Assembly (NCBI GenBank): GCA_035444565.1
Contig: DAOMOX010000001.1
Coordinates: forward strand, 194,335-258,334
Origin: Candidatus Dojkabacteria bacterium
Lineage (GTDB): Bacteria > Patescibacteriota > Dojkabacteria > B142 > OLB20
Reading direction: 5' to 3'
Length of the DNA stretch: 64,000 nucleotides
The position numbers were made by a program, and so were the translations under genes. Positions 11,768 through 62,817 of this stretch are shown piece by piece. Every line of letters begins with the position of its first letter. Positions within the stretch are counted from its first letter, which is position 1. A model generated the notes under the pieces. The model was not told the origin of the DNA. It did no database searches and saw only the letters and a list, made by a program, of their open reading frames with translations.

Positions 11768-11853
11768 AATCATACTAATAGCTGACTCTCTTTGATATGC
11801 GTGTTCCAAGGAATATCTTAAATTTTTTATTCTTTTATTTTTAATCGTTAACT

Positions 11854-12609
11854 CTATACATACTCCCCTCGCATTTCTCGCCAAACCACCGACAAAATCT
11901 GCTTCAGCATATCACCAGATTCGCGGAAGAATTTGCGATCTTTTGTACCAGATATATCTTCGTCGTTCCATTTCACTCGAACTTCTTTTATTTTTCCCCC
12001 TTTTTTCTGTATTAAATACAATAATTCGACATCAAATGCAGAAACCGACCAACCCTTTACGTTTTTCACCTTCAAAGCATTTAATTTAGGGAATGTCTCA
12101 CTCAATAAATCTGCTCTGAAAAGTTTGAACCCGCATTGCGTGTCATCAATTTGTCTCAAAAGGAAAAGCTTTCTGAAGCTGCTAAACATAAATCCAGCGA
12201 CTTTGCGGATAACTGTTGCAGAGTTGCGTTTACTGCCTCTAGAACCTATTACAGCTTGATTTTCGGCAATATATGGCATGAGTCTATCCAACTCACTCAA
12301 TGGAGTCGATTGATCCATATCAGTAAACAAAATATATTCACCAAAGGATTCTTGAATCCCACGATTTATAGCTACTGGCTTTCCTCCATGCTCTGCCTCA
12401 ACAATTTTAAGGAATTTTTTATCAGCGTAATTTTTTTTCAAATATTTCAAACTCCCGTCTGTTGAACCATCATCTACTATCAAAACTTCATAAGTAAAAT
12501 CCTGCTTTGATAGATACTTAAAAGCTTTGTGTAATAGACCTTTCTTCAGATTTGAAAGTTCGTTATATTGAGGAATTATTATTGATAAAAAGATTTTATC
12601 CTTTTTCAT
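11854..12609 (-). CDS. GT2 polyprenol-phosphate sugar synthase (Dpm1/GtrB/ArnC-like)
   Basis: SIIIPQYNE...VLIVDDGSTDGS...FTDMDQS (DxD)...CGFKLFR are classic Dpm1-type GT2 motifs. It overlaps the upstream GT-C gene by 14 nt. Confidence 0.8.
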   Translation of the reverse strand: MKKDKIFLSIIIPQYNELSNLKKGLLHKAFKYLSKQDFTYEVLIVDDGSTDGSLKYLKKNYADKKFLKIVEAEHGGKPVAINRGIQESFGEYILFTDMDQSTPLSELDRLMPYIAENQAVIGSRGSKRNSATVIRKVAGFMFSSFRKLFLLRQIDDTQCGFKLFRADLLSETFPKLNALKVKNVKGWSVSAFDVELLYLIQKKGGKIKEVRVKWNDEDISGTKDRKFFRESGDMLKQILSVVWREMRGEYV

Positions 12610-47482: not shown

Positions 47483-47734
47483 GAAAAAACTTTCCATAAC
47501 TAAAGTGAGAAATGCACTGAATTTATATAATCATGATATTTGACAGCATATCTTAGGTTGGTATGTTTTGTCCGACAACGTTTTCCACCTCCACAGACCA
47601 GACAAACAATAACATACCCTTAGAAATCTCTATCAACCTACTAAAGTGACACACCCTCTCCGAGTGCTCACTGTTTACGAATGAAGTACCTATCTAGTAT
47701 AATTAGCATTACTTATTCTAACTTAACCTGCCCC

Positions 47735-47756
47735 TCCTGATTCGTCGGGATTTTTT
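47735..47756 (+). promoter_or_regulatory. terminator-like hairpin UCCUGA-UUCG-UCGGGA plus U6, ending 13 nt before the start codon of the 1582-aa GT fusion gene. It could terminate an upstream ncRNA or act as a leader or attenuator
   Basis: tcctgattcgtcgggatttttt, one G-U pair in the stem. It lies at the 3' end of a 286-nt, relatively GC-rich non-coding spacer (47483-47768). Confidence 0.4.
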
Positions 47757-47768: not shown

Positions 47769-50700
47769 ATGTTTGATTTGGAAATCGTCATACCCGTTCT
47801 CAATGAAGAGAAGGCAGTGGCAGAATTAATTAAAAGAATAGACAAGAGTCTGAGATCCGAAAAGATTTCGTATAGGATGATTTTTGTTGATGACCATTCT
47901 ACCGACAAAACGGTTGAGATAATTCAATCATTTAAGAAAAAATATCCAATTCTTCTTCACACAAAGACAGGGAAACCTGGCAAAGCATACTCTATCCTTG
48001 AAGGTGCAAACCTTGCGTCATCTGAAAAAATTGCAATGCTTGACGGCGACCTGCAGTACCCACCTGAGGTACTTCCCCATATGTTCAGACTTTCTGAAAT
48101 CTACGGAGTGGTTGTGGCAGATAGAAAAAAGGAACATCTGTCTTTATTGCGAAGAGCTCTATCTAATCTCAATTCACAGATGATTGGGAAGTATCTGTTG
48201 AAGCTTGACTGTGACTCTCAATCCGGACTAAAAGTATTCAGAAAAGAAATAATTGAACAATTAAACAAAAAAGATTTGCAACCTTGGGCATTGGACATGC
48301 CTTTACTATACGCTGCATTGAATATGGGTTATAAAATTGGAAACGTAGAGATTGACTTTGTAGATCGAGCTTATGGAACATCCAAGGTTAACTTCATCAA
48401 AACCACATTTGAAATTATCTCCACCGCATTCTCACTTAAATTTTTCTCCTCAAAGATTGCATCTATTAAACCGGAAAGAGATTCAATGCTTGGGTCGGGG
48501 GTCATCTATAAAAACAAAAAGTATATAACCCACACCACACTTCCGCATTCCGAATCTGCGCTTTATACGTTTACCCGAAAACAGAAGCTAATTATTATCA
48601 GTTTGATTGTGGGTATATTGGCGGGATTGATACTTAATCCACTAAACGCCTTGATTGTGATTGTGGCAATTTTGAGTTTGATCTATTTTGCAGATGTTGT
48701 TTTTGGAGCGTATGTATTGGCGAAAAGTTTACATTATCCACCAGAGTTAACGTTTGATGCAGAGGAATTAAATAATCTGAAAACAAAAGATCTACCTACC
48801 TACAGTATTCTCTGTCCATTATATAAGGAGGGCAACATATTGCCTGAATTCGTAAAATCCATTAGAAATCTCGACTGGCCAAAGCGTAAATTAGATGTCT
48901 TAATACTGCTTGAAAAAGACGATAAAGAAACACTTGCCGCCGCAAAGAAGCTTAGACTTCCAAAGTATATAAGAGTTATTGTTGTTCCCGATTCACAACC
49001 CCGGACCAAACCAAAGGCTTGTAATTATGGTCTACAATTATCGAAAGGAGAATATGTAGTAATTTTTGATGCAGAAGACAAACCAGACCCACTTCAATTA
49101 AAGAAAGCGTATCTCGGATTCCGAAAAAGCGGAGAGAAGGTCTTCTGTTTGCAATCTAAACTTAATTACTACAATCCAGACGATAATCTTCTGACCAGAC
49201 TTTTTACAGCGGAATATTCTCTGTGGTTCGATGTCATCCTTCCAGGATTGCAATCAATCAAAACAACAATTCCACTTGGAGGAACAAGTAATCACTTCAG
49301 GACAAAGCAATTGATTACCATGCAAGGATGGGACCCATTCAATGTTACAGAAGATTGCGATCTCGGTGTCAGAATCTTCAAAGCAGGATATTCAACAGCA
49401 ATTATCGACTCAACGACATATGAAGAGGCAAATAGCTCCCCGAAAAACTGGGTTAGGCAACGTTCTCGGTGGATTAAGGGCTATATGCAAACATATTTGG
49501 TTCATATGAGAAATCCTCTAAAATTTCTACGAGAGCACGGAATTCATGCTCTCATCTTTCAATTAATTATAGGTATGCGAATCAGCTTTATGCTGATTAA
49601 CCCTTTACTATGGTTGGCTACTTTTGTCTATTTTGCATTTAGACCATTTGTTGGGGAATACATCGAAGCTCTTTATCCATCATGGATTTTCTACATCGCA
49701 GGAATTTCTCTTGTCGGTGGAAATTTCATGTACATATTTAATTATATGATTGGATGTGCAAAGAAGGAACACTACGGTTTAATCAAGTATGTCTTCTTTA
49801 TCCCTCTTTATTGGATTCTTGCTAGTGTCGCCGCATTCAAAGCAGCGCAACAACTAATTCTCAAGCCACACTTCTGGGAGAAGACCCATCATGGATTACA
49901 TCTCTCGACCAAAGAAACCAACCAAATTGTAAAAGAAGAATTAAAATCGAAACGAGTATCAGAGAAAAATAAATTTAATTTTAGACCCAAAATCAGTCCC
50001 TACTTCAATAAAGCTACAACATTGCTAAAGGGTGGTAGTTTTGGAATAACACTATTAGTTGGGGCATCCGTAGGTGCCAATTTCCTTGATTTCTTAACTA
50101 GTACTTACCTTGGCAGAAATCTTGGTTCTGAAGAATTTGGATTAATTGGATTGATGGGAAGTTTTATTTTCATAGTCAATTTGATCGCTGCTGGAATAAA
50201 TAAAACGGTATCCCACCAGACTGCTTTCGTGTATGGGAAATACGGGAAACCTGTTGGAAGATTGTGGTATGAACATCGTAACAAAGTTATTAAATTATCC
50301 ATCCTCTTTACTCTTATATGGTTGTTGGTAGTTCCGTTTTCAGAAGACTTTTTTAACTCGCATACACTCTTTCCTTTTCTTGTATTCACTCCCGTTTGGG
50401 TTTCCTTAATGCTTAAAGCATGGGATGGAGGTTATCTAGAAGGAAGTCTTAAATTCACCTGGTTGGCAGTCCTTACACTAGTAGCAGCATTTTCAAAACT
50501 ATTGTTCTCAGTAATATTTGTAACTTTTGGATTGGAACACCTCGTTTACGCAGCTGGACCGATATCCTTATTCCTCGGATTCTGTGGAGGTTGGATAGTC
50601 GCTAGGAAAATAGCTCATCAAAATACTGATACTACTACTAAGCCTTCAAGGGCAAATATGAGATTCTCTCGAGCATTCTTAGCAACTGCTACCATAGCAA

Positions 50701-52517
50701 AAGTGTCGTCAATATCGTTTCTAAGTCTAGATTTAATCTTCGTAAAACATTTTTTAACAGCCACCGAGGCAGGAGAATACGCACTTCTCGTTTTAGTAGG
50801 AAGAATAATCTACATCGTAGGAGGTTTTTCTTCACAGTTCATACTTCCAATAATTAGCAAAGAAAGCGGGGAAGGTATTAAGAAAAGTAAATCTTTTAAG
50901 ATAATCATGCTTAGTGTGATTGTCTCAACTCTGTTAGTCTTTTTAATGGTCGGACCTCTTGGTTCCACGACGATTCCATTGTTATTCGGGAATAATGCAT
51001 TGCCGATAACCCCTTACTTGACTCCATTCGCCCTAGCCATGGTACTATTCACAATTGCCTATAGTCTTGTTACTTATCATCAAGCACGTAAAGAGTACGC
51101 ATTTTCTCTTATCGGTATAGTCACTGCTATTGTGCAATTTCTATTTCTATATCTTTTTCACTCAAACATCGGTCAAGTTGTCTCGGGAATGCTTCTAAGT
51201 GGAGCTTTCTACTTGATAACTACACTCATAATGCACATCTATTATGAGAAGGTAATAGCTATTCAGTCAAACTTGGTGGATCTTTGGGACTTGATTGTGA
51301 ACCCCAAACGTCCAGCCTTTGGAATGGACACTGTTAACAAATTAAACATTCTAATTTATAACTGGAGAGACACAAAACACGTATGGGCAGGGGGGGCTGA
51401 AGTATATGTACATGAACTTGCAAAACAGTGGGTAGAAAAAGGTAATCACGTCACTGTTTTCTGCGGTAACGATGGATTATGTGAACGTCATGAAATTGTT
51501 GATGGTGTGAACATTATACGCCGGGGAGGATTTTATACAGTATATGTATGGGCAATCCTCTACTATATTCTGAGATTAAGAGGAAGGTATGATGTTATAG
51601 TCGAAAGCGTTAATGCTATGCCCTTTTTCACTCCACTTTTTTCGAGGATACCTAAATTAGCCATAATCCATCATGTACATAGTGATATCATCTTGAAAGA
51701 ACTTAAGTTGCCATTGACTCGTATTCCACTCGCTGTAATTACTAAATTTATTGAGAGTAAAGTAATGCCGATTGTTTACCAAAACACTCAAATGGTTACC
51801 GTTTCAAAATCAAGCAAAGAAGATATGGAAAAGATTGGTTTTGGAAAGAATAAAGCGATACAAATCATCAACCCCGGAATCGATTTAAATATACTTAAAC
51901 CTAGTCCAAAATCAAAAACACCTACCCTCTTATACCTTGGCAGATTAAAGCCATATAAATCTATTGATACACTTATCAAAGCAACTAATGAATTGAGAGA
52001 GGTTTTTCCAAATATTAGAGTGAAAATTGCTGGTTTTGGAGAAAGCCGAAAAGACTTAGAAAGTTTGACTAGAAAATTAGGTCTGCAGAGATATGTAGAA
52101 TTCCTAGGAAGGGTATCAGAAGCAAACAAAGTCCGCTTATTAGGGGAAGCTTGGGTATTTGTACAACCATCAACCTTCGAAGGTTGGGGTATCTCAATTT
52201 TAGAGGCCAATGCTTGTGGGACACCAATTGTGGCTTCAAGGGTCCCGGGACTCATAGACTCTGTTAAAAATCCATCAACCGGTTATACTGTAAAAGTAAA
52301 AGATGAAAAAGCATTTGCCGAAGCAATCCAAAAACTATTGCAGGATAATAAATTAAGAAAAAGATTCTCTGCGAACTCAATAAAATGGGCAAATAATTTT
52401 GGTTGGGAAGGCAAAGCTAATGATTTTATGAATATTGTACTGCAAGAGGTACATAACGCAGATACCGTTCACTTGTTCGGGGAACAGTTACATAGCCGTG
52501 GTGAGAATGTTGACTAA
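47769..52517 (+). CDS. four-module membrane glycosyltransferase fusion (1582 aa): Dpm1-like GT2, processive QxxRW GT2 synthase, MOP/Wzx-like multi-TM flippase region, GT4
   Basis: Module 1 (aa 1-230): EIVIPVLNE, FVDDHSTD, MLDGDLQ (Dpm1-type). TM pair at about aa 255-315. Module 2 (aa about 325-585): SILCPLYKE, VIFDAEDKPD (DxD), TED, QRSRW at aa 564-568, then a 4-TM bundle typical of processive synthases. Module 3 (aa about 745-1250): about 12 TM with Wzx/Polysacc_synt-like periodicity. Module 4 (aa about 1265-1582): GT4 with ...VQPSTFEGWGISILEANACGTPIVAS. It is a single uninterrupted ORF in the supplied track. Confidence 0.85.
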   Translation: MFDLEIVIPVLNEEKAVAELIKRIDKSLRSEKISYRMIFVDDHSTDKTVEIIQSFKKKYPILLHTKTGKPGKAYSILEGANLASSEKIAMLDGDLQYPPEVLPHMFRLSEIYGVVVADRKKEHLSLLRRALSNLNSQMIGKYLLKLDCDSQSGLKVFRKEIIEQLNKKDLQPWALDMPLLYAALNMGYKIGNVEIDFVDRAYGTSKVNFIKTTFEIISTAFSLKFFSSKIASIKPERDSMLGSGVIYKNKKYITHTTLPHSESALYTFTRKQKLIIISLIVGILAGLILNPLNALIVIVAILSLIYFADVVFGAYVLAKSLHYPPELTFDAEELNNLKTKDLPTYSILCPLYKEGNILPEFVKSIRNLDWPKRKLDVLILLEKDDKETLAAAKKLRLPKYIRVIVVPDSQPRTKPKACNYGLQLSKGEYVVIFDAEDKPDPLQLKKAYLGFRKSGEKVFCLQSKLNYYNPDDNLLTRLFTAEYSLWFDVILPGLQSIKTTIPLGGTSNHFRTKQLITMQGWDPFNVTEDCDLGVRIFKAGYSTAIIDSTTYEEANSSPKNWVRQRSRWIKGYMQTYLVHMRNPLKFLREHGIHALIFQLIIGMRISFMLINPLLWLATFVYFAFRPFVGEYIEALYPSWIFYIAGISLVGGNFMYIFNYMIGCAKKEHYGLIKYVFFIPLYWILASVAAFKAAQQLILKPHFWEKTHHGLHLSTKETNQIVKEELKSKRVSEKNKFNFRPKISPYFNKATTLLKGGSFGITLLVGASVGANFLDFLTSTYLGRNLGSEEFGLIGLMGSFIFIVNLIAAGINKTVSHQTAFVYGKYGKPVGRLWYEHRNKVIKLSILFTLIWLLVVPFSEDFFNSHTLFPFLVFTPVWVSLMLKAWDGGYLEGSLKFTWLAVLTLVAAFSKLLFSVIFVTFGLEHLVYAAGPISLFLGFCGGWIVARKIAHQNTDTTTKPSRANMRFSRAFLATATIAKVSSISFLSLDLIFVKHFLTATEAGEYALLVLVGRIIYIVGGFSSQFILPIISKESGEGIKKSKSFKIIMLSVIVSTLLVFLMVGPLGSTTIPLLFGNNALPITPYLTPFALAMVLFTIAYSLVTYHQARKEYAFSLIGIVTAIVQFLFLYLFHSNIGQVVSGMLLSGAFYLITTLIMHIYYEKVIAIQSNLVDLWDLIVNPKRPAFGMDTVNKLNILIYNWRDTKHVWAGGAEVYVHELAKQWVEKGNHVTVFCGNDGLCERHEIVDGVNIIRRGGFYTVYVWAILYYILRLRGRYDVIVESVNAMPFFTPLFSRIPKLAIIHHVHSDIILKELKLPLTRIPLAVITKFIESKVMPIVYQNTQMVTVSKSSKEDMEKIGFGKNKAIQIINPGIDLNILKPSPKSKTPTLLYLGRLKPYKSIDTLIKATNELREVFPNIRVKIAGFGESRKDLESLTRKLGLQRYVEFLGRVSEANKVRLLGEAWVFVQPSTFEGWGISILEANACGTPIVASRVPGLIDSVKNPSTGYTVKVKDEKAFAEAIQKLLQDNKLRKRFSANSIKWANNFGWEGKANDFMNIVLQEVHNADTVHLFGEQLHSRGENVD

Positions 52518-53454
52518 ACAAATCAAACAAAATACCCCAAATCAGAACTTCCCTGAAAAGATAGAGCATTTTTCCTTTGTTCACAATCTCGGAGAATTTG
52601 GGAAAGATTCTTCTTTTCACTTCGCACTTTATAGGGACACTGAAGGGAATGAATATGTCTGTAAACTATTTAAGGGAAAAAAGAATAGTCTTAAGTACAG
52701 GTCGATAAAAAATGAAATATCTGCTTACAAAGCTCTTAATCAAAGTTCTCCAACCCTACAAAGCCCATTAGGTTTCGAGATTTCAATTCCAAAAATCTAT
52801 AGCACTTATGAAAACGATGAGATTGTCTGCTTTATTATGGACAAGGTGTCAGGAAACTCCTTAGACAATGAGTCAATTGACAGAATAATTCAATCCTACC
52901 AAGCTATAGCAGAATATTTACTAAAATTTTCCATAGAAGCTGATTTAAGTAAAACAGGTGTACTTAGAAGGAATTTCATTCAATTTTTCCTCTTGTATCA
53001 CTACTATTGCCTTCGAGTAATTCTTAAAAATCCTGAATTAATATTGAAGATTATTAATACTATTCCAGTCTTTTATAGAGGAATTATTAACTTTAGTATT
53101 GATAGAACGAATACACTTGTTATCCGAGACTTAGCAAGTAATAATAATATATTTATTGATAATAAAAAGCTATTAATAATTGATTTAGAATCTGCAACAA
53201 TAACTCATCCAATTATTCAGTTGTCCAGTTTTGTTGTTGTGGAGTCGGCAAACAAAGATTTTCTATTAAAGTTGTGTAATTCAGAAATTACTAAATCTAT
53301 CATGGGGAATCATAGAAATCTACTAATATTTAAAGCCATGTTGGTTTACGGTGCTATGGTCGATATCGTTGCTAACTATATGACCGATAAAGATCCAGTT
53401 AAAAAATCATCCGTGAATTTAATTAATGAAACATTCAAACTGAAACTATCATGA
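52507..53454 (+). CDS. kinase-like phosphotransferase (APH/choline-kinase fold), probable sugar or small-molecule kinase
   Basis: VIRDLASNNNIFID (catalytic-loop-like, aligning with HxDLxxxN) and LIIDLESA (DFG-equivalent IDxE). The start is taken at the ATG at 52507 (MLTKQ...), an 11-nt overlap instead of 83 nt. Confidence 0.45.
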   Translation: MLTKQIKQNTPNQNFPEKIEHFSFVHNLGEFGKDSSFHFALYRDTEGNEYVCKLFKGKKNSLKYRSIKNEISAYKALNQSSPTLQSPLGFEISIPKIYSTYENDEIVCFIMDKVSGNSLDNESIDRIIQSYQAIAEYLLKFSIEADLSKTGVLRRNFIQFFLLYHYYCLRVILKNPELILKIINTIPVFYRGIINFSIDRTNTLVIRDLASNNNIFIDNKKLLIIDLESATITHPIIQLSSFVVVESANKDFLLKLCNSEITKSIMGNHRNLLIFKAMLVYGAMVDIVANYMTDKDPVKKSSVNLINETFKLKLS

Positions 53455-54551
53455 AATTAATAATCTCCACATACGACGATATTAAAAACCCGAATTATGG
53501 GGGTGGGGGAGCAATTGCTCTGCATGAGTTGGCAAAAAGACTCACTAGAAAATTTGAAGTCACGGTCATCAGTTGGAACCATTCTGGGATAAAGAATGAA
53601 AATATTGATGGAGTGGAATATGCACGTATTGGGTTTAGTTTTATTAGTCCAAAGATTGCGATGTTTATATTTCAAATGATTCTACCGTTTTTTGCCATAT
53701 TCAAAAGCTTTGATCTCTGGATTGAGAGTTTTGCTCCACCCTTCACTACCGCATTTCTACCAATATTTACTAGAAAACCCGTAGTCGGTGTAGTACACAT
53801 GCTCGCTGCCGAAGATATGAAGAGGAAATACAAAGTGGACCTTGGCAGAATTGAAAATGCAGGAATTAGAAAATATAAACATATTGTTTCAACTCAAAAT
53901 ATGATTCGCGAAAAGATTCTAAGCGTAAATCCGCAATGTAATTGTAAAGTAATCAGTAACGGAATTGAAAAAGTTTATCCCGAAAAAGTTACGAAGAAAA
54001 AGCAGTTCTTATTCCTAGGTCGGATTGAGATTAATCAAAAAGGGTTGGATTTACTCATAGACACTTTTAAGAAATTTAATAAATTATCAAAAGAAAAATA
54101 CAAATTAGTAATCGCAGGCTCTGGGCTGGATTCTGACTTGAAAAGACTCAAACAACTCATCAAAGAATCTGAATTAGACAACCAGATTGTTCTCGCAGGT
54201 CGTGTCGAGGGGAAATCAAAAGAAACCTTGATGAAAGAGTCAACAGCTATGATTCTTACATCTCGTTTTGAAACATTTTCTATGGTAGCACTGGAGTCGC
54301 TAGCTTTTGGTCTACCACTCGTTACATTTGATATTGAAGGCTTGAAATGGATTCCCGATAATGTTGTCAGAAAAGCAGAATCGTTTAATACGGATGACTT
54401 AGCGAACGTCTTATTAGAAATTATCAATAATAAAAAATTACAAGAGGAAATGCGTATCAACGGTTTGAAATATGCAACGAAATACACCTGGGATAATATC
54501 GCAAAAGAGTATGAAGATTTAATTGATGAAATAAAAAATGCAAAAAGATAA
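53451..54551 (+). CDS. GT4 glycosyltransferase
   Basis: N-terminal NYGGGGAIALHELAKRL. C-terminal SRFETFSMVALESLAFGLPLVTFD (EX7E). Confidence 0.8.
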   Translation: MKLIISTYDDIKNPNYGGGGAIALHELAKRLTRKFEVTVISWNHSGIKNENIDGVEYARIGFSFISPKIAMFIFQMILPFFAIFKSFDLWIESFAPPFTTAFLPIFTRKPVVGVVHMLAAEDMKRKYKVDLGRIENAGIRKYKHIVSTQNMIREKILSVNPQCNCKVISNGIEKVYPEKVTKKKQFLFLGRIEINQKGLDLLIDTFKKFNKLSKEKYKLVIAGSGLDSDLKRLKQLIKESELDNQIVLAGRVEGKSKETLMKESTAMILTSRFETFSMVALESLAFGLPLVTFDIEGLKWIPDNVVRKAESFNTDDLANVLLEIINNKKLQEEMRINGLKYATKYTWDNIAKEYEDLIDEIKNAKR

Positions 54552-55311
54552 TCAATTAATAAAAGAAATCATTACTAAAAAACTTAAATGCGTATTTATA
54601 TCTCCACATTTTGATGATGCAATATTATCTTGTGGAGGTTTGATGCTTGAGTTAGCGGGGAAAACCGAGATGACTGTCGTAAATGTCTTCTCAAAGGCAA
54701 ACGCAGGTCCCCATACTCTTTCCGCTCGACGATTTCTCAAATTTTCTGGAAATCATAGTAGTGCACAAGAACTCTATTCTGCGAGAGAATTAGAAGATAA
54801 ATCAACCCTGCAAAAGTTAGGAGTAAAAGTAATAAACCTTGGGCTAGAAGACGCATTGTTTAGAAAGAAAAAATCCAAAAGTATTTTTAGCAGAGTACTC
54901 CCTGAACTTAATCATGTATATCCGACATACCCATTGCATATTATCAGAGGTGCAAATCCAAACGATCCAGCCTTTAAACAAGTCAAAAACAAATTAAAAA
55001 AATTATATAAAGAGAACAATATTATCTATTTCTCACCATACGGGATTGGAAATCATGCTGACCATCAAGTGGTAAGCTCAGTTAGTAGAGACTTATTCAA
55101 AAAACTAGTGTTGTATTCTGATTTTCCATATAACATACGATTAAACGATTATGGTTCTGACATAGACGGATTTAAGAAAATCGAGTTAATTCCAAATCAG
55201 CTGGAAAAAATACAATTAATAAAAATGTATAAAACACAATTTGAGGGATTATTCCCAAACGGAGAAGTTAAAGAGCACAACGAGGTTTATTTTATAAGAA
55301 ACAAAAAGTGA
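54538..55311 (+). CDS. PIG-L/LmbE family N-acetylglucosaminyl deacetylase
   Basis: VFISPHFDDAILSCGG (PHxDD motif) and GNHADHQ (HxDH motif). Confidence 0.75.
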   Translation: MQKDNQLIKEIITKKLKCVFISPHFDDAILSCGGLMLELAGKTEMTVVNVFSKANAGPHTLSARRFLKFSGNHSSAQELYSARELEDKSTLQKLGVKVINLGLEDALFRKKKSKSIFSRVLPELNHVYPTYPLHIIRGANPNDPAFKQVKNKLKKLYKENNIIYFSPYGIGNHADHQVVSSVSRDLFKKLVLYSDFPYNIRLNDYGSDIDGFKKIELIPNQLEKIQLIKMYKTQFEGLFPNGEVKEHNEVYFIRNKK

Positions 55312-56357
55312 ATGTAAGAATTTATAAAACTACAGATGAAAAACTAATCAAAGAATGGAACGAACTTTGGGAAAAGTCTTCTCATGCACACTTTTTCAAT
55401 TCATATGCCTGGTTTGCTGTTTGTAAAGAAATATTCAAGCCGAGAAATATACGAATTGCTTGTGTTTACAACGATAATGAATTATTAGCAATTTACCCCT
55501 TGTTTGAGCAAAAAAAATATGGCGTAAAAACATATGGCAATCCAGGAGGTAGATTCGCAGACAAATTCTGTTTATTGGTTCTTGATTTAGATGAAAATGT
55601 AATCCGTGAACTGTTAAAGATTCTAAAGACATTCACTGTTTCAATAGAAGAAGTTTCCGAACTATTCTATCCTTGGTTTACTTCTAGTGGTTTCACCAAA
55701 TCCCCTCTAGTCGAAGAAACATCAATACTAAGATTAGGTGATGATCCCTATCGATATATGCATAAAAAGAAGAAAAGAAAGATGCTAAACAAATATAATA
55801 GAAACTTCTCAAATACTAAGTATATTAGATTTAATGGTACTGACGTTAAACGTAACCTCAAATACGTTGAACAAATCGATACGAAAAGCAGGAAAAAGCT
55901 TTCCGGGAAAGAAGTGACATCAGATGGGGAACAATATGAACTATTTAAAAATCTAGCTGAAAAATTCCCACAATATTTAACTTTAGATGTGCTTTTCGTA
56001 CAAGAAAAACCCATCGCTTATGAACTTGGAATTTTATCGAAGGACAAGGAGATTGGATATCAAACAGCTTTTGACGAGGAATTTAAATACTTTGAGCCTG
56101 GACGTATCATTCTTGTTTACATCTGGGAAAGCATGAGAAAAGAAGGAATAGAGATTTATGACTGGGCGAGGGGAACAAATATATTAAAACAAGATTTTAC
56201 AGAATATTTTGAAAAACAATATAAGTTCTATGCCGCAAACAAATTGGTTCTGAGTTTTTGGTATTTACTTGACTATAGTAAAGATTTGATTCTAAACAAT
56301 GATTCCTTGTACAGAGCATACTTGTTTTTTAAAAATCGATTAATTAATTTCCTGTAA
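55308..56357 (+). CDS. GNAT-fold acyltransferase, BioF2-like/CelD/FemAB-related (Acetyltransf_6-like)
   Basis: N-terminal EWNELWEKSSHAHFFNSYAWFAVC pattern and a size of about 350 aa. It is a paralog of the next gene. Confidence 0.45.
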   Translation: MNVRIYKTTDEKLIKEWNELWEKSSHAHFFNSYAWFAVCKEIFKPRNIRIACVYNDNELLAIYPLFEQKKYGVKTYGNPGGRFADKFCLLVLDLDENVIRELLKILKTFTVSIEEVSELFYPWFTSSGFTKSPLVEETSILRLGDDPYRYMHKKKKRKMLNKYNRNFSNTKYIRFNGTDVKRNLKYVEQIDTKSRKKLSGKEVTSDGEQYELFKNLAEKFPQYLTLDVLFVQEKPIAYELGILSKDKEIGYQTAFDEEFKYFEPGRIILVYIWESMRKEGIEIYDWARGTNILKQDFTEYFEKQYKFYAANKLVLSFWYLLDYSKDLILNNDSLYRAYLFFKNRLINFL

Positions 56358-56359
56358 TA

Positions 56360-57436
56360 ATGTCTCCGAAATATCAAATAAAAACTTTTTACGAGATTGA
56401 TCAAAACCTGATTAAAGAGTGGGAATCACTATGGATTAACGCAGTAAATGCGACAATATTTAACTCATATCCATGGTTCAAGGCTACTTCAAAAACTAAA
56501 CAATTGCATAAATGTGTTATTTATCTCTGTTACCAAAACGATGAACTTGTGGCAATCTTACCCCTCGTGGAGGAAAAGCGATTTGGAATCAAAGTGTTAA
56601 CAACTCATCTAGGAAGTTATATTTCAGATGAAGCAATTTTATTAAAGGAATATAATGCACAACTGCTAAAAGAACTAATAGTAGAGATTTCCAAGAACAA
56701 CAACTTATACCTAACCCGGGTAAGCTCCACAAATGTCCAAGACCTAAAAAACATTTTTCCTCAAATATTCTTCTCTGTTATTGGTGTAAATCCGATTATT
56801 AATCTCAAGGGTGACCCATTATCTTCGTTTTCAAAGTCATCAAGAAAGAAACTAGAAAGCATACTAAAGAAAGCAGGAGACATGATTGTACTCAAGACAT
56901 TTTCAGAAGATGATAATCTAAATGAATTGCTAAAAGTAATGATTGATATTGATACAAATAGTGGGAAGCAAAAGAATTCAAGAGATATATTCACCAAAGA
57001 GGAAGAAAAAAGATTCTTCGCCAATTTGATTAACTACTGTAGGAAATATATTGAAATATCAATACTTTATTACAATGATAAACCCATAGCTTACACATTC
57101 AACCTGAAGGGTGGAAAAGTATATTTTGGTTACCAAACTTCATATCTATTTGAGTATAGAAAATTGTCTCCAGGGAAATTAGTATTAATGAGATCTCTTA
57201 AAGAAATTGCACATTCGGGATATAATCTACTGGACTGTGGAGAAGGTCTTAGCGCATTTAAACAAGAATTTACTAAAGATTATAAACTGAAATATGATCT
57301 TCATTATTCGAGGAATTCTTTGGTGATGATTTGGTGGAAATTAATAATTTTCGCAAGAAGAGCAAAACAAATACTTCTCCCAGAGAAAAATAGTAGGGAT
57401 TATGAATTTTTATTTACTACAAATTTAAAAGGTTAA
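56360..57436 (+). CDS. GNAT-fold acyltransferase, BioF2-like/CelD/FemAB-related (paralog)
   Basis: EWESLWINAVNATIFNSYPWFKAT with the same layout as 55308-56357. Confidence 0.45.
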   Translation: MSPKYQIKTFYEIDQNLIKEWESLWINAVNATIFNSYPWFKATSKTKQLHKCVIYLCYQNDELVAILPLVEEKRFGIKVLTTHLGSYISDEAILLKEYNAQLLKELIVEISKNNNLYLTRVSSTNVQDLKNIFPQIFFSVIGVNPIINLKGDPLSSFSKSSRKKLESILKKAGDMIVLKTFSEDDNLNELLKVMIDIDTNSGKQKNSRDIFTKEEEKRFFANLINYCRKYIEISILYYNDKPIAYTFNLKGGKVYFGYQTSYLFEYRKLSPGKLVLMRSLKEIAHSGYNLLDCGEGLSAFKQEFTKDYKLKYDLHYSRNSLVMIWWKLIIFARRAKQILLPEKNSRDYEFLFTTNLKG

Positions 57437-57461
57437 TTATATAAAAAAGCACTTTAAAGAA

Positions 57462-59069
57462 ATGGAAAAAGTCATAAAATTAAAAAAATTTAAAAGTATG
57501 TTTTCAACAACATTACAAATAGTAGTATTAATATTCATAACATTGGTACTATTTGCCTCTATTAGAGGAACTGCAGGAATTCCTACAGCTGAAGAACTAA
57601 ACAGCCCAGTTTGGAAAGAACAAGGACCATTTGAATTATCCCCAGAAAGAGGACGTTATGCTTTAACATATTCAATCATTGAAGATAAATCATTTGATTT
57701 CTCTATACCTGTCGCAAGATTTACTACTCCCGACCTTGGTTTTACAGATGGCAAATTTGTCTCGTTGTTTGCTCCTGGCGTTTCCTTCTTGGTTATTCCG
57801 GGATACATTGTCGGACATTACCTAGGGATGTCTCAAGTGGGAACATATTCTGCAATTGCTGTCTATGCAATTCTAAACTTTATATTGATTCGTCAGATAA
57901 GTAAATTATTGGGGGCAAGTAACCCAGCTTCAGTAATTGCAGGGATGACTTTCATATTCGCAACTCCCGCCTTTGCGTATGGTGTAAGCCTTTACCAACA
58001 TCATATATCTACATTCCTGATACTTTTAGCTACATACTTACTAGTCAGATTTGAAAGGAAATGGTTAGCTATAGTTGGAATTTGGTTCCTTTGCGGATTA
58101 GGGATAGCTGTAGATAATCCAAATCTATTGATGATGATGCCAATAGGTATAGTTGCATTATTGCAATCTCTAGATATTGAAGAGAAGAAGGAAGAGATGA
58201 GTATAAGAATTTATCCGAAATATATTATTGCAATAATTGGAGTACTTATACCAGCTTTAGGATTCATGTATTTTAATTATGTATCTTATGGAAATCCTTT
58301 ACAGTTAGGAGGTACAACAAATAGTGTAGATGCGATAAACGAAGAAGGTAAACCAGTTACTTCTGAAGGTATACTGACCCCTGAAGAACTTGCACAAGCC
58401 GGAGAGTTTGAAGAGGGAGAACGTTCTTCTGTCGGGTTTTTCGAGGCTCGAGACATGGTCAACGGTCTTTATATCCACCTTTTCAGTGAAGACAGAGGTG
58501 TGATATATTTCACACCTGTAATCCTGACCGGAATTATTGGAATTTTCGTACTTTATAGATCAAAAAATAAACATCTCCCATTACTATTAAGTATCGTCGG
58601 AGTGAATCTGATACTCTACTCAATGTGGGGTGACCCTTGGGGAGGATGGGCATTTGGATCAAGGTATTTGATACCAAGTTATGCCATTATGTCGATTTTC
58701 ATTGCAATGGCATTAACCAGATATTCCAGAAATATTCTGGTCTTGCTTGTTTTTGCCGTACTTTTTGTCTATTCAACTGCAATAAACACACTAGGAGCTA
58801 TCACTACAAGCGCAATACCTCCGAAAGTACAAGCTATTCCGCTCGAAGCTTTGACTGGTAAAGAAGAAAAATTCAACTACAAAAGAAGCTGGGATTTCCT
58901 AAACAATAATGGTTCTAAGTCATATTTTTACCAGGAATTTCTGGAAGATAGTGTTCCAGCAAAAGATTTTTATATCACTCTTGTGTCAGCGATATCCACA
59001 GTATCAATAATGACATTAATCGGAGTCTATTTAACAAAAAGAAAAACTAAAGATGAAAATAAAGATTGA
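57462..59069 (+). CDS. GT-C fold membrane glycosyltransferase-like protein (PMT/ArnT/PIG-mannosyltransferase-like)
   Basis: 535 aa with about 11 TM and an extracytoplasmic loop after TM1. Overall GT-C topology. Confidence 0.5.
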   Translation: MEKVIKLKKFKSMFSTTLQIVVLIFITLVLFASIRGTAGIPTAEELNSPVWKEQGPFELSPERGRYALTYSIIEDKSFDFSIPVARFTTPDLGFTDGKFVSLFAPGVSFLVIPGYIVGHYLGMSQVGTYSAIAVYAILNFILIRQISKLLGASNPASVIAGMTFIFATPAFAYGVSLYQHHISTFLILLATYLLVRFERKWLAIVGIWFLCGLGIAVDNPNLLMMMPIGIVALLQSLDIEEKKEEMSIRIYPKYIIAIIGVLIPALGFMYFNYVSYGNPLQLGGTTNSVDAINEEGKPVTSEGILTPEELAQAGEFEEGERSSVGFFEARDMVNGLYIHLFSEDRGVIYFTPVILTGIIGIFVLYRSKNKHLPLLLSIVGVNLILYSMWGDPWGGWAFGSRYLIPSYAIMSIFIAMALTRYSRNILVLLVFAVLFVYSTAINTLGAITTSAIPPKVQAIPLEALTGKEEKFNYKRSWDFLNNNGSKSYFYQEFLEDSVPAKDFYITLVSAISTVSIMTLIGVYLTKRKTKDENKD

Positions 59070-60657
59070 AAAAGCAAAAATTAACAATTTAACTCATTTC
59101 CTAGAGAAGCATGCACTAACGTTAATCGTATTAACCCTTATTTTAGTAGCAACTGCCACATGGTATGGGTTCTATCAAAATGGATTAGGGCTCGCATACA
59201 ACGACGCTCGCTCACATCTAAATATCGGAAGACGTGTTGTAGAAGGTCTAAAACCAGGACTTGCACAGATTGGATCTGTTTGGTTACCACTACCTCATTT
59301 GCTCATGGTTCCGACCATATGGAATGACTTTTTCTGGCATTCGGGACTCGCTGGAGCAATTCAATCAATGGGTTCTTTTGTTATCACAGGTATGTTAGTT
59401 TATCTTTATTTGAAAAAGCTCGGAGTGTCACTATTTGCACGATTCTTTGGTGTCGCTATGTTTGCCCTGAATTTAAATGTATTGTATCTACAATCAACCG
59501 CGATGACCGAGCTACTTTTGATTGCTACCATGACTGCTGGTTCGTATTACTTGTTATTGTGGGCTCAGAAGGAAAATATTGTTGATCTCTTAAAGTGCTC
59601 TCTTTTTATAATGCTTTCCACTTTGATTCGATATGATGGCTGGTTCTTGATTTTCATAGCTACTTTGATAGTGGCATTCCAAATATTTCGCAAGAAAGGC
59701 TACAAGGCCACAGAAGGTATGTCGATCATGTTTATGTCTCTTGGTGGTTTAGGTATTGCGCTTTGGGTACTCTGGAATTTACTGATTTTCGGAGACCCAT
59801 TATTCTTTGCATTTGGTCCTTTTTCAGCACATTCTCAGCAGGAACAGTTATTAGCAGCAGGGAATCTCCCTACAAAGGGCGATATACTACTCTCAATCAA
59901 AATGTATCTATATGCCCTATTTTTCAATTCTTATACATTACCGGCGATTCTAGGGCTATTTGGAGGTATAAGTCTATGGTTTAACAAGAAAATTAATATA
60001 AATGCTCGAATTGCCACACTGGCTTTGATTGCTCCATTTATTTTCAACATTCTAGCACTTTACCTTGGTCACTCCGTTTTGTTTATTCAAGGGATTTCTG
60101 GAGACACATGGTTCAATGTCCGCTATGGAGTCATGCTTGCCCCTTCTATTGCCATTTTCGTGGCATATTTGACCGACAAAGTGAAACCAATGAGATTCGT
60201 TATAGTGGGTCTTACTTTGCTGGTTCTGACATTTGCTTTTCTAAATCAAGATGCTGTAACAATTGATGATGCACGAGTTGGCTCTAGTCAGAAAAATGTT
60301 TCCGAAGTATCCGACTGGCTAGCTGATAACGCTGGAGACAAAGAAGGCTTTATTCTAATTTCTGCTGCCTCTCATGATGCTATAATCTTTTCGTCAGGAA
60401 TGGATATGAGTAGATTTATCCATGAAGGAACAGGACTTTACTGGGATACTGCTCTCGGAAACCCTGACCATTGGGCTAGATGGATAGTGATGAGAACCCA
60501 TGACGAAAATGATTTAGTATTCAGAGAAATCAACAAAGAAGCATGGGAAGATCATTACACACTTGTAGATCATTATCCTTTTGCAGATATCTACGAACTA
60601 AAACCAGAGTCAATGACAAATTTAAACACAGAACCTGTTCTTAAGAATGTGAAATAA
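59053..60657 (+). CDS. GT-C fold membrane glycosyltransferase-like protein (second, with a C-terminal extracytoplasmic domain of about 150 aa)
   Basis: 534 aa with about 11 TM. The first loop is LAYNDARSHLNIGRRV. It overlaps the previous gene by 17 nt. Confidence 0.45.
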   Translation: MKIKIEKAKINNLTHFLEKHALTLIVLTLILVATATWYGFYQNGLGLAYNDARSHLNIGRRVVEGLKPGLAQIGSVWLPLPHLLMVPTIWNDFFWHSGLAGAIQSMGSFVITGMLVYLYLKKLGVSLFARFFGVAMFALNLNVLYLQSTAMTELLLIATMTAGSYYLLLWAQKENIVDLLKCSLFIMLSTLIRYDGWFLIFIATLIVAFQIFRKKGYKATEGMSIMFMSLGGLGIALWVLWNLLIFGDPLFFAFGPFSAHSQQEQLLAAGNLPTKGDILLSIKMYLYALFFNSYTLPAILGLFGGISLWFNKKININARIATLALIAPFIFNILALYLGHSVLFIQGISGDTWFNVRYGVMLAPSIAIFVAYLTDKVKPMRFVIVGLTLLVLTFAFLNQDAVTIDDARVGSSQKNVSEVSDWLADNAGDKEGFILISAASHDAIIFSSGMDMSRFIHEGTGLYWDTALGNPDHWARWIVMRTHDENDLVFREINKEAWEDHYTLVDHYPFADIYELKPESMTNLNTEPVLKNVK

Positions 60658-61668
60658 ATGATGGATTTTATTGAAAAGCTAAGAAGACTTAGCCTCAAAC
60701 AAATTATATCTGGGCTTTTTATAGCAAGTTTAATTTCTTTACTAGTTTATCTCTACATTTCATCGGTGCAAGGTCCAAATAAACCAGCTAATCTCTGGGA
60801 AGTTCAATCTATCGACACTATGAAATATTCTAGGGATTTAGCTAGAGAAAAACTAAACGAAGCAACGTTTGACGAGGAAATTGATTATCAAGTTAGTAAT
60901 ATCAAAGAGATGGGTGCTAGTCATGTAGCACTCGGAACTCCATACGATGATGAGTTTATACCTTATCTAGAAAGGTGGGTTAATACTGCAAGAAAGTATC
61001 GCCTAAAAGTTTGGTTCCGGGGGAATTTCTCAGGATGGGAGCAATGGTTCAATTACGAGGGGATAACTCCAGAAAAACATCAGGAACTAATTGAAACATT
61101 CATTATTAATAATCCGCAACTTTTCCAGGATGGAGACATTTTCTCACCATGTACCGAATGTGAAAATGGAGTATTGGGAGACCCGAGACTCACTGGTAAT
61201 GTCAATGACTATAAAATATTCTTGGTCGAAGAATATGATATAGCCAATACCGCATTCGATAGAATTGAAAAAGACGTTACAGTAAATTTCCCGATGAACG
61301 GAGATGTCGCAGAATTAATTATGGACAAACGGATGACTCAAAATCTGGGAGGAGTAGTTGTGGTGGATCATTACGTCGAAAGACCTGAACAATTAGCAGA
61401 AGACGTAAGACATTATGCAAAATTAAGCGGGGGCAAAGTAATCCTAGGTGAAATAGGTGTTTATATTCCTGGAATCCATCCCCAAATGAATGATTTCGAA
61501 CAGGCAGACTGGCTTGAACAAGCTTTAACATTGCTTGCAGAAGAGGAAGACCTCGTAGGTATTAATTATTGGGTATTTAGCGACGGGACCACTCAACTAT
61601 GGGAGAAAGACACTCGTGTGAAAAGGAAAGCGGCTGATGTTTTACAAAATTTCTATAAACCCAAGTAG
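60658..61668 (+). CDS. membrane-anchored TIM-barrel glycoside-hydrolase-like protein (GH5/GH113-like, tentative)
   Basis: N-terminal TM. KVILGEIGV is a candidate nucleophile-Glu strand, and ...NPQLFQDGDIFSPCTECENG is a candidate acid/base region. GINYWVFSDG may be a C-terminal barrel strand. Confidence 0.35.
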   Translation: MMDFIEKLRRLSLKQIISGLFIASLISLLVYLYISSVQGPNKPANLWEVQSIDTMKYSRDLAREKLNEATFDEEIDYQVSNIKEMGASHVALGTPYDDEFIPYLERWVNTARKYRLKVWFRGNFSGWEQWFNYEGITPEKHQELIETFIINNPQLFQDGDIFSPCTECENGVLGDPRLTGNVNDYKIFLVEEYDIANTAFDRIEKDVTVNFPMNGDVAELIMDKRMTQNLGGVVVVDHYVERPEQLAEDVRHYAKLSGGKVILGEIGVYIPGIHPQMNDFEQADWLEQALTLLAEEEDLVGINYWVFSDGTTQLWEKDTRVKRKAADVLQNFYKPK

Positions 61669-61749
61669 GGAGACATTTTTGGCAAAATTTGATAAAATCA
61701 TGCACTAGGTAAAGGAATTACTATATTAGTACATATTTTTTAAAGCATT

Positions 61750-62817
61750 ATGAAAATAATAATTTTCGCTGGAGGGCATGGTACTCGATTATGGCCACTC
61801 AGTCGTAAAAACTCCCCAAAGCAATTCGAGAAAATGTTTAACGGTAAATCTACTCTACAATTGATGGTAGATAGGGTTAAACCCGTTGTTGGCATTGAGA
61901 ACGTATATATTTCAACCGGTAGCGCTTTCAAAGAAATTATTGAAAGTCAGCTCACGGAACTTCCCAGGGAAAATATCATCTACGAACCAGCAAAAAGAGA
62001 TCTCGCCGCTGCAGTTGGTCTTGCTTTTCTAACATTAAAACAAAAAGGTGTGAACGAGCCTGTAGCAATATTATGGTCTGATCATCTGGTTGAAAATCTA
62101 TCTGAATTTCAAAATGCATTAAGAACAGGTGAGCAACTTATCAATGAAAATCCAAACAGATTTATCTTTAACGGAGAAATACCTAGATTTGCAAATAATA
62201 ATTTAGGTTGGATTAGTATCGGAGACACAATTGAAAATAAAAATGGATTTGATGTCCATAGTTTTGAAGGTTGGATTTACAGACCTGATGTCGAATTATG
62301 CAATCAATTATTCGAATCAAAAAGAGCAGTCTGGAACACTGGATATTTTGTTACTTCCGTCGATTTTGTAACAGGCTTGTATCAACAGCACATGCCTGAA
62401 ATGTATTCTCAACTTCAACAAGTAGTTTCCAGCCCTGAACTTTTGGATTCTATCTACCCGACAATTGAATCTATACATTTTGACGAAGCAATAGTACAAA
62501 AATCACGTCCCGATCAGGCTGTTGTACTCACTTTTGACATAGGTTGGAGTGACCCCGGAACACTTTATGCACTTAAAGAAGCTATAGTGGCTAACAAAGA
62601 AGATAATTATATTCATGGTAAAGCAGTATCACTGGCTACTTCGGATTCTATGATTTTTAATCAACAACAGAATAAATTAGTCGCAACTATCGGATTAGAC
62701 GGATTTGTAGTAGTAAATACAGAAGATGCTGTTTTCGTATGTCACAAGGACAATATTAGAGAGATAACACAGTTATTAAAACAAATTGAAGCAGAAGGAT
62801 ACTCGGAGTACCTATAA
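61750..62817 (+). CDS. manC: mannose-1-phosphate guanylyltransferase (GDP-mannose pyrophosphorylase)
   Basis: MKIIIFAGGHGTRLWPLSRKNSPKQF matches the ManC N-terminal signature (GG.GTRLWPLSR...PKQF). Confidence 0.8.
   Translation: MKIIIFAGGHGTRLWPLSRKNSPKQFEKMFNGKSTLQLMVDRVKPVVGIENVYISTGSAFKEIIESQLTELPRENIIYEPAKRDLAAAVGLAFLTLKQKGVNEPVAILWSDHLVENLSEFQNALRTGEQLINENPNRFIFNGEIPRFANNNLGWISIGDTIENKNGFDVHSFEGWIYRPDVELCNQLFESKRAVWNTGYFVTSVDFVTGLYQQHMPEMYSQLQQVVSSPELLDSIYPTIESIHFDEAIVQKSRPDQAVVLTFDIGWSDPGTLYALKEAIVANKEDNYIHGKAVSLATSDSMIFNQQQNKLVATIGLDGFVVVNTEDAVFVCHKDNIREITQLLKQIEAEGYSEYL

Follow-up and report, generated by a model that had tools for sequence, protein, structure and literature searches.

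A conserved operon of Microgenomates-type Patescibacteria and the cell-envelope amino-sugar glycoconjugate that it may assemble

The pathways that contain Orf2* (teicoplanin) and Dbv21 (A40926) proceed by the transfer of N-acetylglucosamine (GlcNAc), its deacetylation, and then N-acylation. In the Arn pathway, ArnD deformylates undecaprenyl phosphate-4-deoxy-4-formamido-L-arabinose (Und-P-Ara4FN). In the Caulobacter holdfast system, the deacetylase HfsH is accompanied by HfsK, a FemX-like tandem-GNAT protein that has been proposed to acylate the amines so freed (PMC5362036). The subject of this work is a cluster of ten plus-strand genes (g1 to g10; Table 1) at positions 47769-62817 of a 64,000-nucleotide (nt) stretch of Candidatus Dojkabacteria DNA (contig DAOMOX010000001.1, positions 194,335 to 258,334), which is called the window below. 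The genes form a tightly packed operon, and there is about an even chance that this operon assembles an amino-sugar glycoconjugate of the cell envelope, by editing in the cytoplasm, flipping, and elaboration outside by glycosyltransferases (GTs) of the GT-C type. Literature searches found no description of this cluster.

Gene order and conservation

The arrangement of the genes lies far beyond chance; a further 18 loci of the candidate phyla radiation (CPR) have them in the same order. These loci came from a scan of a genome collection anchored on g4 and from look-ups anchored on relatives of g9 and g4, and they were mapped by tblastn/blastp. At least 15 of them represent distinct species-level genomes, and three come from organisms more closely related to that of the window. 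Thus, conservation and synteny in related CPR genomes, which an earlier reading of the window (the sequence-only reading) had proposed as a check, were borne out, and the operon is conserved across Microgenomates-type Patescibacteria. Synteny of the fusion, GT4, PIG-L, (GNAT), GT-C1, GT-C2, and GH-A genes is seen in L005-L012, L036, L050, L085, L086, L088-L090, L093, and L094.

The constant core of the cluster is the trio of GT-C1, GT-C2, and GH-A genes (g7, g8, and g9); all 18 of the other CPR loci have either the full trio or, at a minimum, GT-C2 and GH-A. A GT4 gene adjoins the PIG-L gene on its upstream side in 16 of the 18, the exceptions being L087 and L095. With brackets for the variable members, the consensus order begins with GT2a-synthase-Wzx-GT4 (fused or split), (kinase), (extra GT2), (GrpB), (CE4), and GT4, and it ends with (HAD), PIG-L, (GrpB), (zero to two Acetyltransf_6), (extra GT4), GT-C1, GT-C2, and GH-A. 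The middle of the cluster is therefore variable in its kinase, extra GTs, GrpB, HAD, and zero to two GNATs. Neither this variability nor the role of the trio as the core had been seen in the sequence-only reading. Among the variants, L089 has a HAD phosphatase between GT4 and PIG-L, L050 has a fusion of GrpB, GT2, and GT4, and carbohydrate esterase family 4 (CE4) deacetylases occur in L093 and L095. In L095, the CE4 deacetylase is fused to GT2, and probably to GT-C1 as well, in one protein of 1106 amino acids (aa), and its CE4 domain takes the place of PIG-L. PIG-L is absent from L087, which has other GTs and dTDP-sugar genes instead and keeps the trio without the synthase.

The cluster also has a counterpart in a second phylum. 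At about 30 actinobacterial loci among L013-L051, from Streptomyces, Arthrobacter, Paenarthrobacter, Kocuria, Pseudonocardia, Actinoplanes, and other genera, a GT4 gene lies immediately upstream of a PIG-L gene whose product is 33-39% identical to g4. Approximately 5 kb upstream, most of these loci carry a GT2 gene and another GT4 gene. Arthrobacter L015 has the order GT2, GT4, a 1017-aa protein (5781-8834), GT4, and PIG-L, in which the 1017-aa protein is Wzx-like over its N-terminal half (Polysacc_synt) and matches the GT-C families PMT (1.9e-8) and PMT_2 (2.1e-7) over its C-terminal half. Thus, six activities (a DPM1-like GT2, two GT4s, a flippase, a GT-C, and PIG-L) are linked in two phyla by fusions that differ from one phylum to the other, and this is the strongest evidence that they belong to one membrane-crossing pathway. 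The actinobacterial arrangement, GT2-GT4-[Wzx+PMT-type GT-C]-GT4-PIG-L, is a simpler sister module that mirrors the CPR cluster, and it is apparently uncharacterised.

The sequence-only reading had picked out GT4, PIG-L, and N-acyltransferase as a unit. That unit stood: it is backed by the 16 CPR loci, by the approximately 30 actinobacterial loci, and by L011, where one 610-aa open reading frame (ORF; 9995-11827) is a PIG-L deacetylase fused to Acetyltransf_6.

That reading had also counted eleven genes. The ORF listing of the window yields ten on the plus strand, and the earlier list itself names ten. From g1 to g9, the junctions are, in order, overlaps of 11, 4, 14, and 4 nt, gaps of 2 and 25 nt, an overlap of 17 nt, and a gap of 0 nt, whereas an 81-nt gap separates g9 from g10. 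These lengths take the ATG at 52507 as the start of g2, as does the gene call of the source contig, and with this start the overlaps of 4, 11, 14, and 17 nt given earlier are correct.

CPR-type clusters were also encountered on contigs (L005, L006, L010, and L036; proteins P0126 and P0241) that public records label as Methylomirabilota, Pseudomonadales, Sulfotelmatobacter, Fimivivens, or Niabella; mis-binning or mislabelling of contigs from metagenome-assembled genomes is the probable cause.

Table 1. Features of the cluster, promoter-like sites upstream of it, and loci in which the trio precedes a sortase gene (TM, transmembrane; PMI, phosphomannose isomerase)
Feature	Description	Position	Strand	Basis
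g1	1582-aa fusion: GT2a, GT2b synthase, MOP flippase-like, GT4	47769..52517	+	Pfam, NCBIfam, TM scan
g1 domain 1	aa 1-230; soluble GT-A GT2, DPM1/ArnC/GtrB/PgfS-like	47769..48458	+	Pfam Glycos_transf_2, 2.6e-21
g1 domain 2	aa ~270-740; membrane-embedded processive GT2 synthase	48576..49988	+	Pfam Glyco_trans_2_3, Glyco_tranf_2_3
g1 domain 3	aa ~770-1175; ~10 TM segments, MOP/Wzx-like flippase domain	50076..51293	+	TM scan, Pfam matches of homologues
g1 domain 4	aa ~1200-1560; GT4 (GT-B, retaining)	51366..52448	+	Glycos_transf_1, 1.1e-44; Glyco_transf_4, 2.6e-15
g2	315-aa phosphotransferase of APH/ChoK/protein-kinase fold; accessory gene	52507..53454	+	Pfam matches of homologues
g3	GT4 glycosyltransferase	53451..54551	+	Pfam; conserved upstream partner of deacetylase
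g4	PIG-L/LmbE zinc-dependent de-N-acetylase, cytoplasmic	54538..55311	+	PF02585, catalytic motifs
g5	Acetyltransf_6 GNAT N-acyltransferase	55308..56357	+	PF13480, 8.1e-15, 55.7 bits (cutoff 22)
g6	Acetyltransf_6 GNAT N-acyltransferase	56360..57436	+	PF13480, 1.4e-18, 67.8 bits (cutoff 22)
g7	Membrane glycosyltransferase of GT-C fold (GT-C1)	57462..59069	+	Structure-based fold match
g8	Probable second GT-C-type membrane glycosyltransferase (GT-C2); C-terminal extracytoplasmic domain	59053..60657	+	NCBIfam, topology
g9	Membrane-anchored clan GH-A (beta/alpha)8 glycoside hydrolase or transglycosylase	60658..61668	+	Fold
g10	Mannose-1-phosphate guanylyltransferase, ManC type without PMI domain	61750..62817	+	NTP_transferase, ManC_GMP_beta-helix
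Promoter-like site	One of the two best; in 287-nt upstream gap	47540-47567	+	10/12 consensus positions
Promoter-like site	One of the two best; in 287-nt upstream gap	47674-47703	+	10/12 consensus positions
Trio-sortase locus	L087	11313-12433		
Trio-sortase locus	L093	11345-12348		
Trio-sortase locus	L094	11332-12491		
Trio-sortase locus	L095	11301-12484		

Enzymes encoded from g1 to g10

All of the enzyme assignments that the sequence-only reading had made were verified at the family level, the weak case being g8. The best named NCBIfam matches of the first domain of g1 (GT2a) are ArnC (2.4e-19, 69.5 bits; cutoff 529) and PgfS (2.6e-19, 69.6 bits; cutoff 500), whose E-values are significant and whose resemblance is at the family level only. 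Its motifs are DDHS (aa 41) and DGD (aa 92). The earlier claim that a Dpm1-like GT2 domain occurs together with GT-C enzymes is upheld by the NCBIfam and fold matches. The two domains that follow, a processive synthase and a Wzx-like flippase, had been overlooked. The synthase matches PgaC/IcaA (1e-26 over the near-full model) and CelA (4.5e-20), both under the equivalog cutoffs. It contains DAED (434), TED (527), and QRSRW (564), with TM segments at 294, 592, and 671, and so has the D, DxD, TED, and QxxRW motifs and the flanking TM helices of processive GT2 beta-glycan synthases. It is among the best-conserved parts of the cluster (56-65% identity). The window copy of the flippase domain has no Pfam match, but homologues do match flippase families: a stand-alone homologue (L008:6559-7974) matches Polysacc_synt_3 at 3.5e-8, above the cutoff, and the orthologous fusions in L088, L089, and L094 contain PF01943 (Polysacc_synt). 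Fusions of the g1 type, of approximately 1560-1620 aa, are also present in L006, L011, L012, L036, L050, L086, L088-L090, L094, and L095, and the same parts are separate genes in L005, L008, L010, and L093. In L050 (14426-17617), a second, stand-alone synthase (529 aa) directly adjoins a second copy of GT-C2 (529 aa), which suggests that the synthase and GT-C2 work as a pair.

The products of g2 to g6 should act in the cytoplasm, because g4 to g6 have no TM segment and g2 and g3, with one weak internal hydrophobic segment each, have no N-terminal signal-like segment. Although g2 itself has no Pfam match, 28 of 37 sequences sampled from its 311 homologues (HMMER) match APH and six match Choline_kinase. 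A profile search of the Protein Data Bank (PDB) with g2 gave matches to the catalytic loops of kinases, and the kinase residues K53, E70, D208, N214, and D226 are conserved. The gene is present in L006, L009, L011, L089, L090, L094, and L095 and is not in the remaining loci examined. The deacetylase g4 matches PF02585 with 53.8 bits (cutoff 28.2; 3.6e-14). Its SPHFDD (H24, D26, and D27) and HADH (H173, D175, and H176) are invariant in 20-39 homologues, and the PHxDD/HxDH motifs are thus intact.

The sequence-only reading had placed this LmbE-like protein beside MshB and BshB in its proposed logic. Its nearest solved relatives are instead Dbv21 and Orf2* (approximately 1e-12 in a profile search of the PDB); that search returned these and one deacetylase, and neither MshB nor BshB, at E <= 1. 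A search of NCBIfam with g4 at E <= 0.1 returned PRK02122 alone (18 bits) and no MshB or BshB equivalog. For the two acyltransferases, described earlier as FemAB/CelD-like, the second half of the description was right. All 13 sequences examined (g5, g6, and 11 homologues) match PF13480 (Acetyltransf_6, CelD/BioF2-like), and none matches PF02388 (FemAB proper); there was one weak match to PF04339, below the cutoff. Aminoacylation by these enzymes is therefore speculation. The two are paralogues (25% identity over the full length, 7e-37), and their length (approximately 350 aa) is roughly that of tandem-GNAT enzymes (FemX and HfsK, for example). Orthology of g4 to MshB/BshB and membership of g5 and g6 in FemAB proper were both rejected, since the family models are not matched.

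A GrpB gene or domain, of nucleotidyltransferase fold, recurs within the cluster (L088, 10768-11313; L094, 6196-6801; L050, 4921-7575). Together, GrpB, the APH-like kinase, and the GNATs recall the three classes of aminoglycoside-modifying enzymes.

The trio g7 to g9 has no Pfam family. In topology scans, g7 and g8 are polytopic and g9 has an N-terminal anchor. The best fold matches of g7 are ALG12 and ArnT, and it is nearer to these than to GPI-MT-I or PimE; it has the membrane fold of a GT-C enzyme, and an acidic residue of its first extracytoplasmic loop is conserved. The case for g8 comes from the NCBIfam family LA_3751/LA_3752 ("putative glycosyltransferase"), which is common to g7 and g8. 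The window copy of g8 matches it at 3.3e-4, and seven of 14 homologues match it, the best at 7.9e-9. In addition, Y49-N50-D51-A52-R53-S54-H55 of g8 is invariant after TM1, and there is a soluble C-terminal domain. With the shared family and this topology, g8 is probably a GT-C enzyme. It is the most conserved gene of the cluster (50-66% identity). An alignment of g8 with the g7 profile (hhalign) gave an insignificant probability of 1.8%. Against the actinobacterial PMT-type GT-C profile, g7 and g8 reached probabilities of 0.3% and 1.3%, likewise insignificant; because g7, a structurally confirmed GT-C, failed as well, this comparison says nothing about g8.

The sequence-only reading had called g9 a GH5-like hydrolase. 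By fold it does belong to clan GH-A, being a (beta/alpha)8 barrel with the acid/base Glu after beta4 and the nucleophile Glu after beta7, and PslG is among its fold matches; GH5 is not reached by sequence, as g9 has no Pfam or NCBIfam match at E <= 10 (including GH5 Cellulase) and no match to PDB sequences with a profile. Apart from the kinase loops of g2, no useful match came from single-sequence and profile searches of PDB sequences with g2, g7, g8, g9, and the GNATs. The trio is very widespread: clustering at 90% identity leaves at least 1472 clusters for g7 and 1876 or more for g9, and the relatives that bear a name belong to Woesebacteria, Gottesmanbacteria, Shapirobacteria, and Amesbacteria. 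A gene for a protein of 150-215 aa without a significant Pfam match, and then a sortase gene, come immediately after the trio in four other Microgenomates lineages (Table 1), which hints at a link to the anchoring of surface proteins.

The identification of g10 is clear, in that both Pfam domains are above their cutoffs and TIGR01479 matches at 1e-58 over positions 4-352 of 467 (the GMP part only). Its membership in the operon is doubtful. ManC adjoins the cluster only in the close relatives L088-L090, which share the flanking YjeF/ApbE and citrate-lyase-like genes, and is not at the cluster in the other 15 of the 18 CPR loci. Furthermore, the 81-nt gap before g10 holds a promoter-like site of its own (61670-61698). 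The claim that mannose is the sugar of this cluster loses its footing on these two counts, and the description of the region as a "mannose island" was rejected, since ManC is not co-conserved outside close relatives.

A proposed pathway and competing explanations

The proposed pathway starts from observed folds, families, intact catalytic motifs, synteny, and fusions, and from these the substrates, the order of the steps, the lipid carrier, and the final acceptor are inferred. In this model, the GT4 g3 would place an N-acetylhexosamine (HexNAc), most likely GlcNAc, onto a lipid-linked acceptor at the cytoplasmic face of the membrane. The PIG-L enzyme g4 would then remove the acetyl group and expose the amine, which g5 and g6, where they are present, would re-acylate with acyl-CoA or aminoacyl-tRNA as the donor. 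The g2 kinase and the GT4 domain of g1 (and elsewhere GrpB and extra GTs) might decorate or extend the intermediate, and the Wzx-like domain of g1 would flip it. Outside, g7 and g8 would either draw on polyprenol-phosphate-sugar donors to add sugars or link the glycan to its final acceptor. A beta-linked polymer would come from the QxxRW synthase domain of g1, and the anchored g9 would trim or remodel the product. Because the cluster contains no phosphoglycosyl-transferase initiator, the acceptor is probably a glycerolipid or other membrane lipid, or else a polyprenol-monophosphate-sugar from the DPM1/ArnC-like GT2a. The steps are tied together by fusions: PIG-L with GNAT (L011); GT2a, synthase, Wzx, and GT4 (most loci); GrpB, GT2, and GT4 (L050); GT2 and CE4, probably with GT-C1 (L095); and Wzx with a PMT-type GT-C (L015). 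For the order of transfer, deacetylation, and N-acylation, the pathways of Orf2* and Dbv21, the nearest solved relatives of g4, are a precedent.

Several observations weigh against this pathway. GNATs are absent from the otherwise complete clusters L009, L012, L050, L086, L093, and L094, so that N-acylation would be optional, and the absence of PIG-L in L087 and its replacement by CE4 in L095 mean that the GlcN (glucosamine) step would not be universal. A processive synthase stands beside a Wzx-type flippase, and the two are usually alternative routes of export. In addition, the assignment of g8 as a GT-C comes from family and topology, and no feature seen in the sequence of the cluster appears to pin down the sugar, the substrate, the lipid carrier, or the product.

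There are several competing explanations. One with a modest chance of being correct is that a sugar is edited on its carrier, as in the Arn system or in mycobacterial galactosamine (GalN) modification. The ArnC-like GT2 would make a polyprenol-P-HexNAc, which PIG-L would deacetylate on the carrier, and, after possible re-acylation by the GNATs and flipping, a GT-C enzyme would move the single modified amino sugar onto a polymer such as that of the QxxRW synthase, a lipid, or a protein. However, the deacetylase adjoins a GT4 and not the GT2 in almost every locus, the two GT4 enzymes would be left without a role, and the scores for ArnC and PgfS lie far under the curated cutoffs. If instead the GT-C pair glycosylated surface or sortase-anchored proteins outside the cell, in the manner of Pgf or PMT systems, the cytoplasmic enzymes would serve to build or edit a lipid-linked donor. 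Such O-glycosylation of proteins is unlikely, as no sortase adjoins the cluster in the window, L085, L086, or L088-L090, the best fold matches are transferases of lipid-linked glycans and lipid A (ALG12 and ArnT) rather than protein transferases, and a processive synthase and a GH-A hydrolase would be atypical of such loci.

The motifs of the synthase domain and its near-full-length match to PgaC/IcaA would fit a synthase-dependent exopolysaccharide, for example one like poly-N-acetylglucosamine (PNAG), chitin, cellulose, or beta-mannan, that is made by the QxxRW GT2 and trimmed by the GH-A enzyme, while the remaining enzymes make a primer or decorations. The resemblance of g9 to hydrolases of synthase operons, with PslG among its matches, and the CE4 deacetylases of L093 and L095 are consistent with this. 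However, L087 has the trio without a synthase, a cytoplasmic PIG-L and cytoplasmic GNATs cannot act on an extruded polymer, and the conserved Wzx-like domain and the GT-C pair are left unexplained, all of which makes an exopolysaccharide very unlikely. It would be more surprising still if the GT4-PIG-L-GNAT sub-cluster made a soluble aminoacyl-GlcN metabolite like mycothiol or bacillithiol and lay among membrane glycan genes by chance; this is highly improbable. The order of the chemistry is indeed that of MshA/MshB and BshA/BshB, the HAD phosphatase between GT4 and PIG-L in L089 recalls MshA2, and the GNATs have about the length of the tandem-GNAT FemX, which uses aminoacyl-tRNA (PMC5362036). 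Nevertheless, the MshA, MshB, BshA, and BshB equivalog thresholds are not reached, there is no ligase of the MshC or BshC type, and the g4 profile finds Orf2*/Dbv21 in the PDB rather than MshB/BshB. Furthermore, the sub-cluster is flanked by the flippase fusion and the GT-C genes in 16 CPR loci and adjoins a Wzx+GT-C fusion in Actinobacteria.

The proposed pathway of cytoplasmic editing, flipping, and external elaboration can also be taken a step further. In that case, CPR and many Actinobacteria would make a GPI (glycosylphosphatidylinositol)-like lipid-GlcN, N-acylated or aminoacylated, which GT-C enzymes would extend outside from polyprenol-P-sugars. This is quite unlikely to be correct. 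If it were true, the GPI-like glycolipid might anchor or accept surface proteins, in keeping with the sortase genes found after the trio in several lineages. GPI biosynthesis would then have a counterpart in bacteria, and perhaps an evolutionary relative, with the same enzymatic logic as the eukaryotic GPI core. More generally, the envelope glycans of CPR/Patescibacteria are barely known experimentally, though these epibiotic cells live by contact with the surface of a host. The operon is one of the widely shared envelope loci of the CPR and offers a testable candidate for a secondary cell-wall polymer, lipoglycan, or glycoprotein system of these organisms. The sister module in culturable Actinobacteria (Arthrobacter and Streptomyces) opens its chemistry to experiment.

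Flanking sequence and comparison with known systems

Upstream of the cluster lie YjeF/Nnr, an unassigned gene, and ApbE, followed by a gap of 287 nt before g1. The two best promoter-like sites of this gap are weak evidence, because the scan for promoters and terminators overall showed no enrichment over shuffled sequences. A terminator-like hairpin followed by TTTTTT (47735-47750, plus strand) lies 3' of these sites and 19 nt 5' of the start codon of g1, and could be an upstream terminator or a leader element. Downstream, the neighbours of g10 resemble ATP-citrate lyase. A gene with ATP-grasp_2, Citrate_synth_N, and Citrate_bind domains directly follows ManC and runs off the end of the window (62867-64000, plus strand), and beyond the window a Ligase_CoA/Citrate_synt gene completes the pair (L001, 18330-20774). 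Such a pair is unusual in a reduced CPR genome and is kept in the close relatives L088-L090.

The window has a GC content of approximately 36%, and tRNA and Rfam scans of it found no feature. Elsewhere in it, on the minus strand, are an Elp3-like protein with Radical_SAM, Radical_SAM_C, and GNAT domains (29219-30973); a 1665-aa predicted surface protein with SdrD_B, CLIPPER, and SpaA-like repeats (14829-19826), which is a possible sortase substrate or glycoprotein target; and a 251-aa GT2 that overlaps a 490-aa protein without a Pfam match (11854-14068), which may be another pair of a GT2 and a membrane transferase.

The sequence-only reading had found the logic of GPI anchor and mycothiol synthesis in the cluster. 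Identity with either system is not supported by the family models. The MshA model TIGR03449 (cutoff 462.5) gives 43 bits with g3 and 118 bits with the GT4 domain of g1, the other Msh/Bsh equivalog thresholds are likewise missed, and Pfam and NCBIfam searches found no MshC, MshD, ethanolamine phosphate transferase, or GPI transamidase among the ten genes. At the level of enzyme classes, the set of the cluster appears to match that of the GPI core (the GT4 PIG-A, PIG-L, flipping, and the GT-C enzymes PIG-M/V/B fed by DPM1). However, there is no sign of a phosphatidylinositol acceptor, g7 is closer to ALG12 and ArnT, and the cluster has in addition a processive synthase, tandem GNATs, a kinase, and a GH-A hydrolase. 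The mycobacterial synthesis of phosphatidylinositol mannosides, lipomannan, and lipoarabinomannan (the GT4s PimA/PimB, an acyltransferase, flipping, Ppm1, and the GT-C enzymes PimE/MptA/MptB) gives a partial match of classes.

Tailoring of teicoplanin and A40926 follows the same sequence from GlcNAc through GlcN to N-acyl-GlcN, and its deacetylases Orf2* and Dbv21 are the nearest to g4. It differs in its acceptor, which is a peptide aglycone, in using a GT1 glycosyltransferase and an acyltransferase of another family, and in having no membrane machinery. The Arn system (the GT2 ArnC, the deformylase ArnD, the flippase ArnE/F, and the GT-C ArnT) would share with the cluster a polyprenol-P GT2, carrier-linked de-N-acylation, flipping, and transfer by a GT-C, and ArnC and ArnT are among the best matches of the cluster proteins. 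However, ArnD is of the CE4 type rather than PIG-L, the cluster has no genes for the synthesis of 4-amino-4-deoxy-L-arabinose (Ara4N), and its two GT4 enzymes and GNATs have no Arn counterpart.

For the pairing of a deacetylase with tandem GNATs, HfsH and HfsK of the Caulobacter holdfast are a functional analogue, although HfsH is a CE4 polysaccharide deacetylase, the holdfast pathway is of the Wzy type, and the activity of HfsK is itself unproven. The Pgf system of Streptococcus mutans resembles the cluster in having a GT2, PgfS (one of the best named matches of GT2a), and two GT-C membrane proteins that act outside; it differs in that PgfM1 and PgfM2 are of the YfhO type and in the lack of a deacetylase, GNAT, synthase, or hydrolase. 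The combination of the four-domain mega-fusion, GT4/PIG-L with tandem GNATs, and a lineage-wide trio without Pfam families is uncharacterised, as are the breadth of the cluster across the CPR and its actinobacterial sister module, but the cluster is a system for glycoconjugate synthesis made of known enzyme classes and in that sense is not of a new category.

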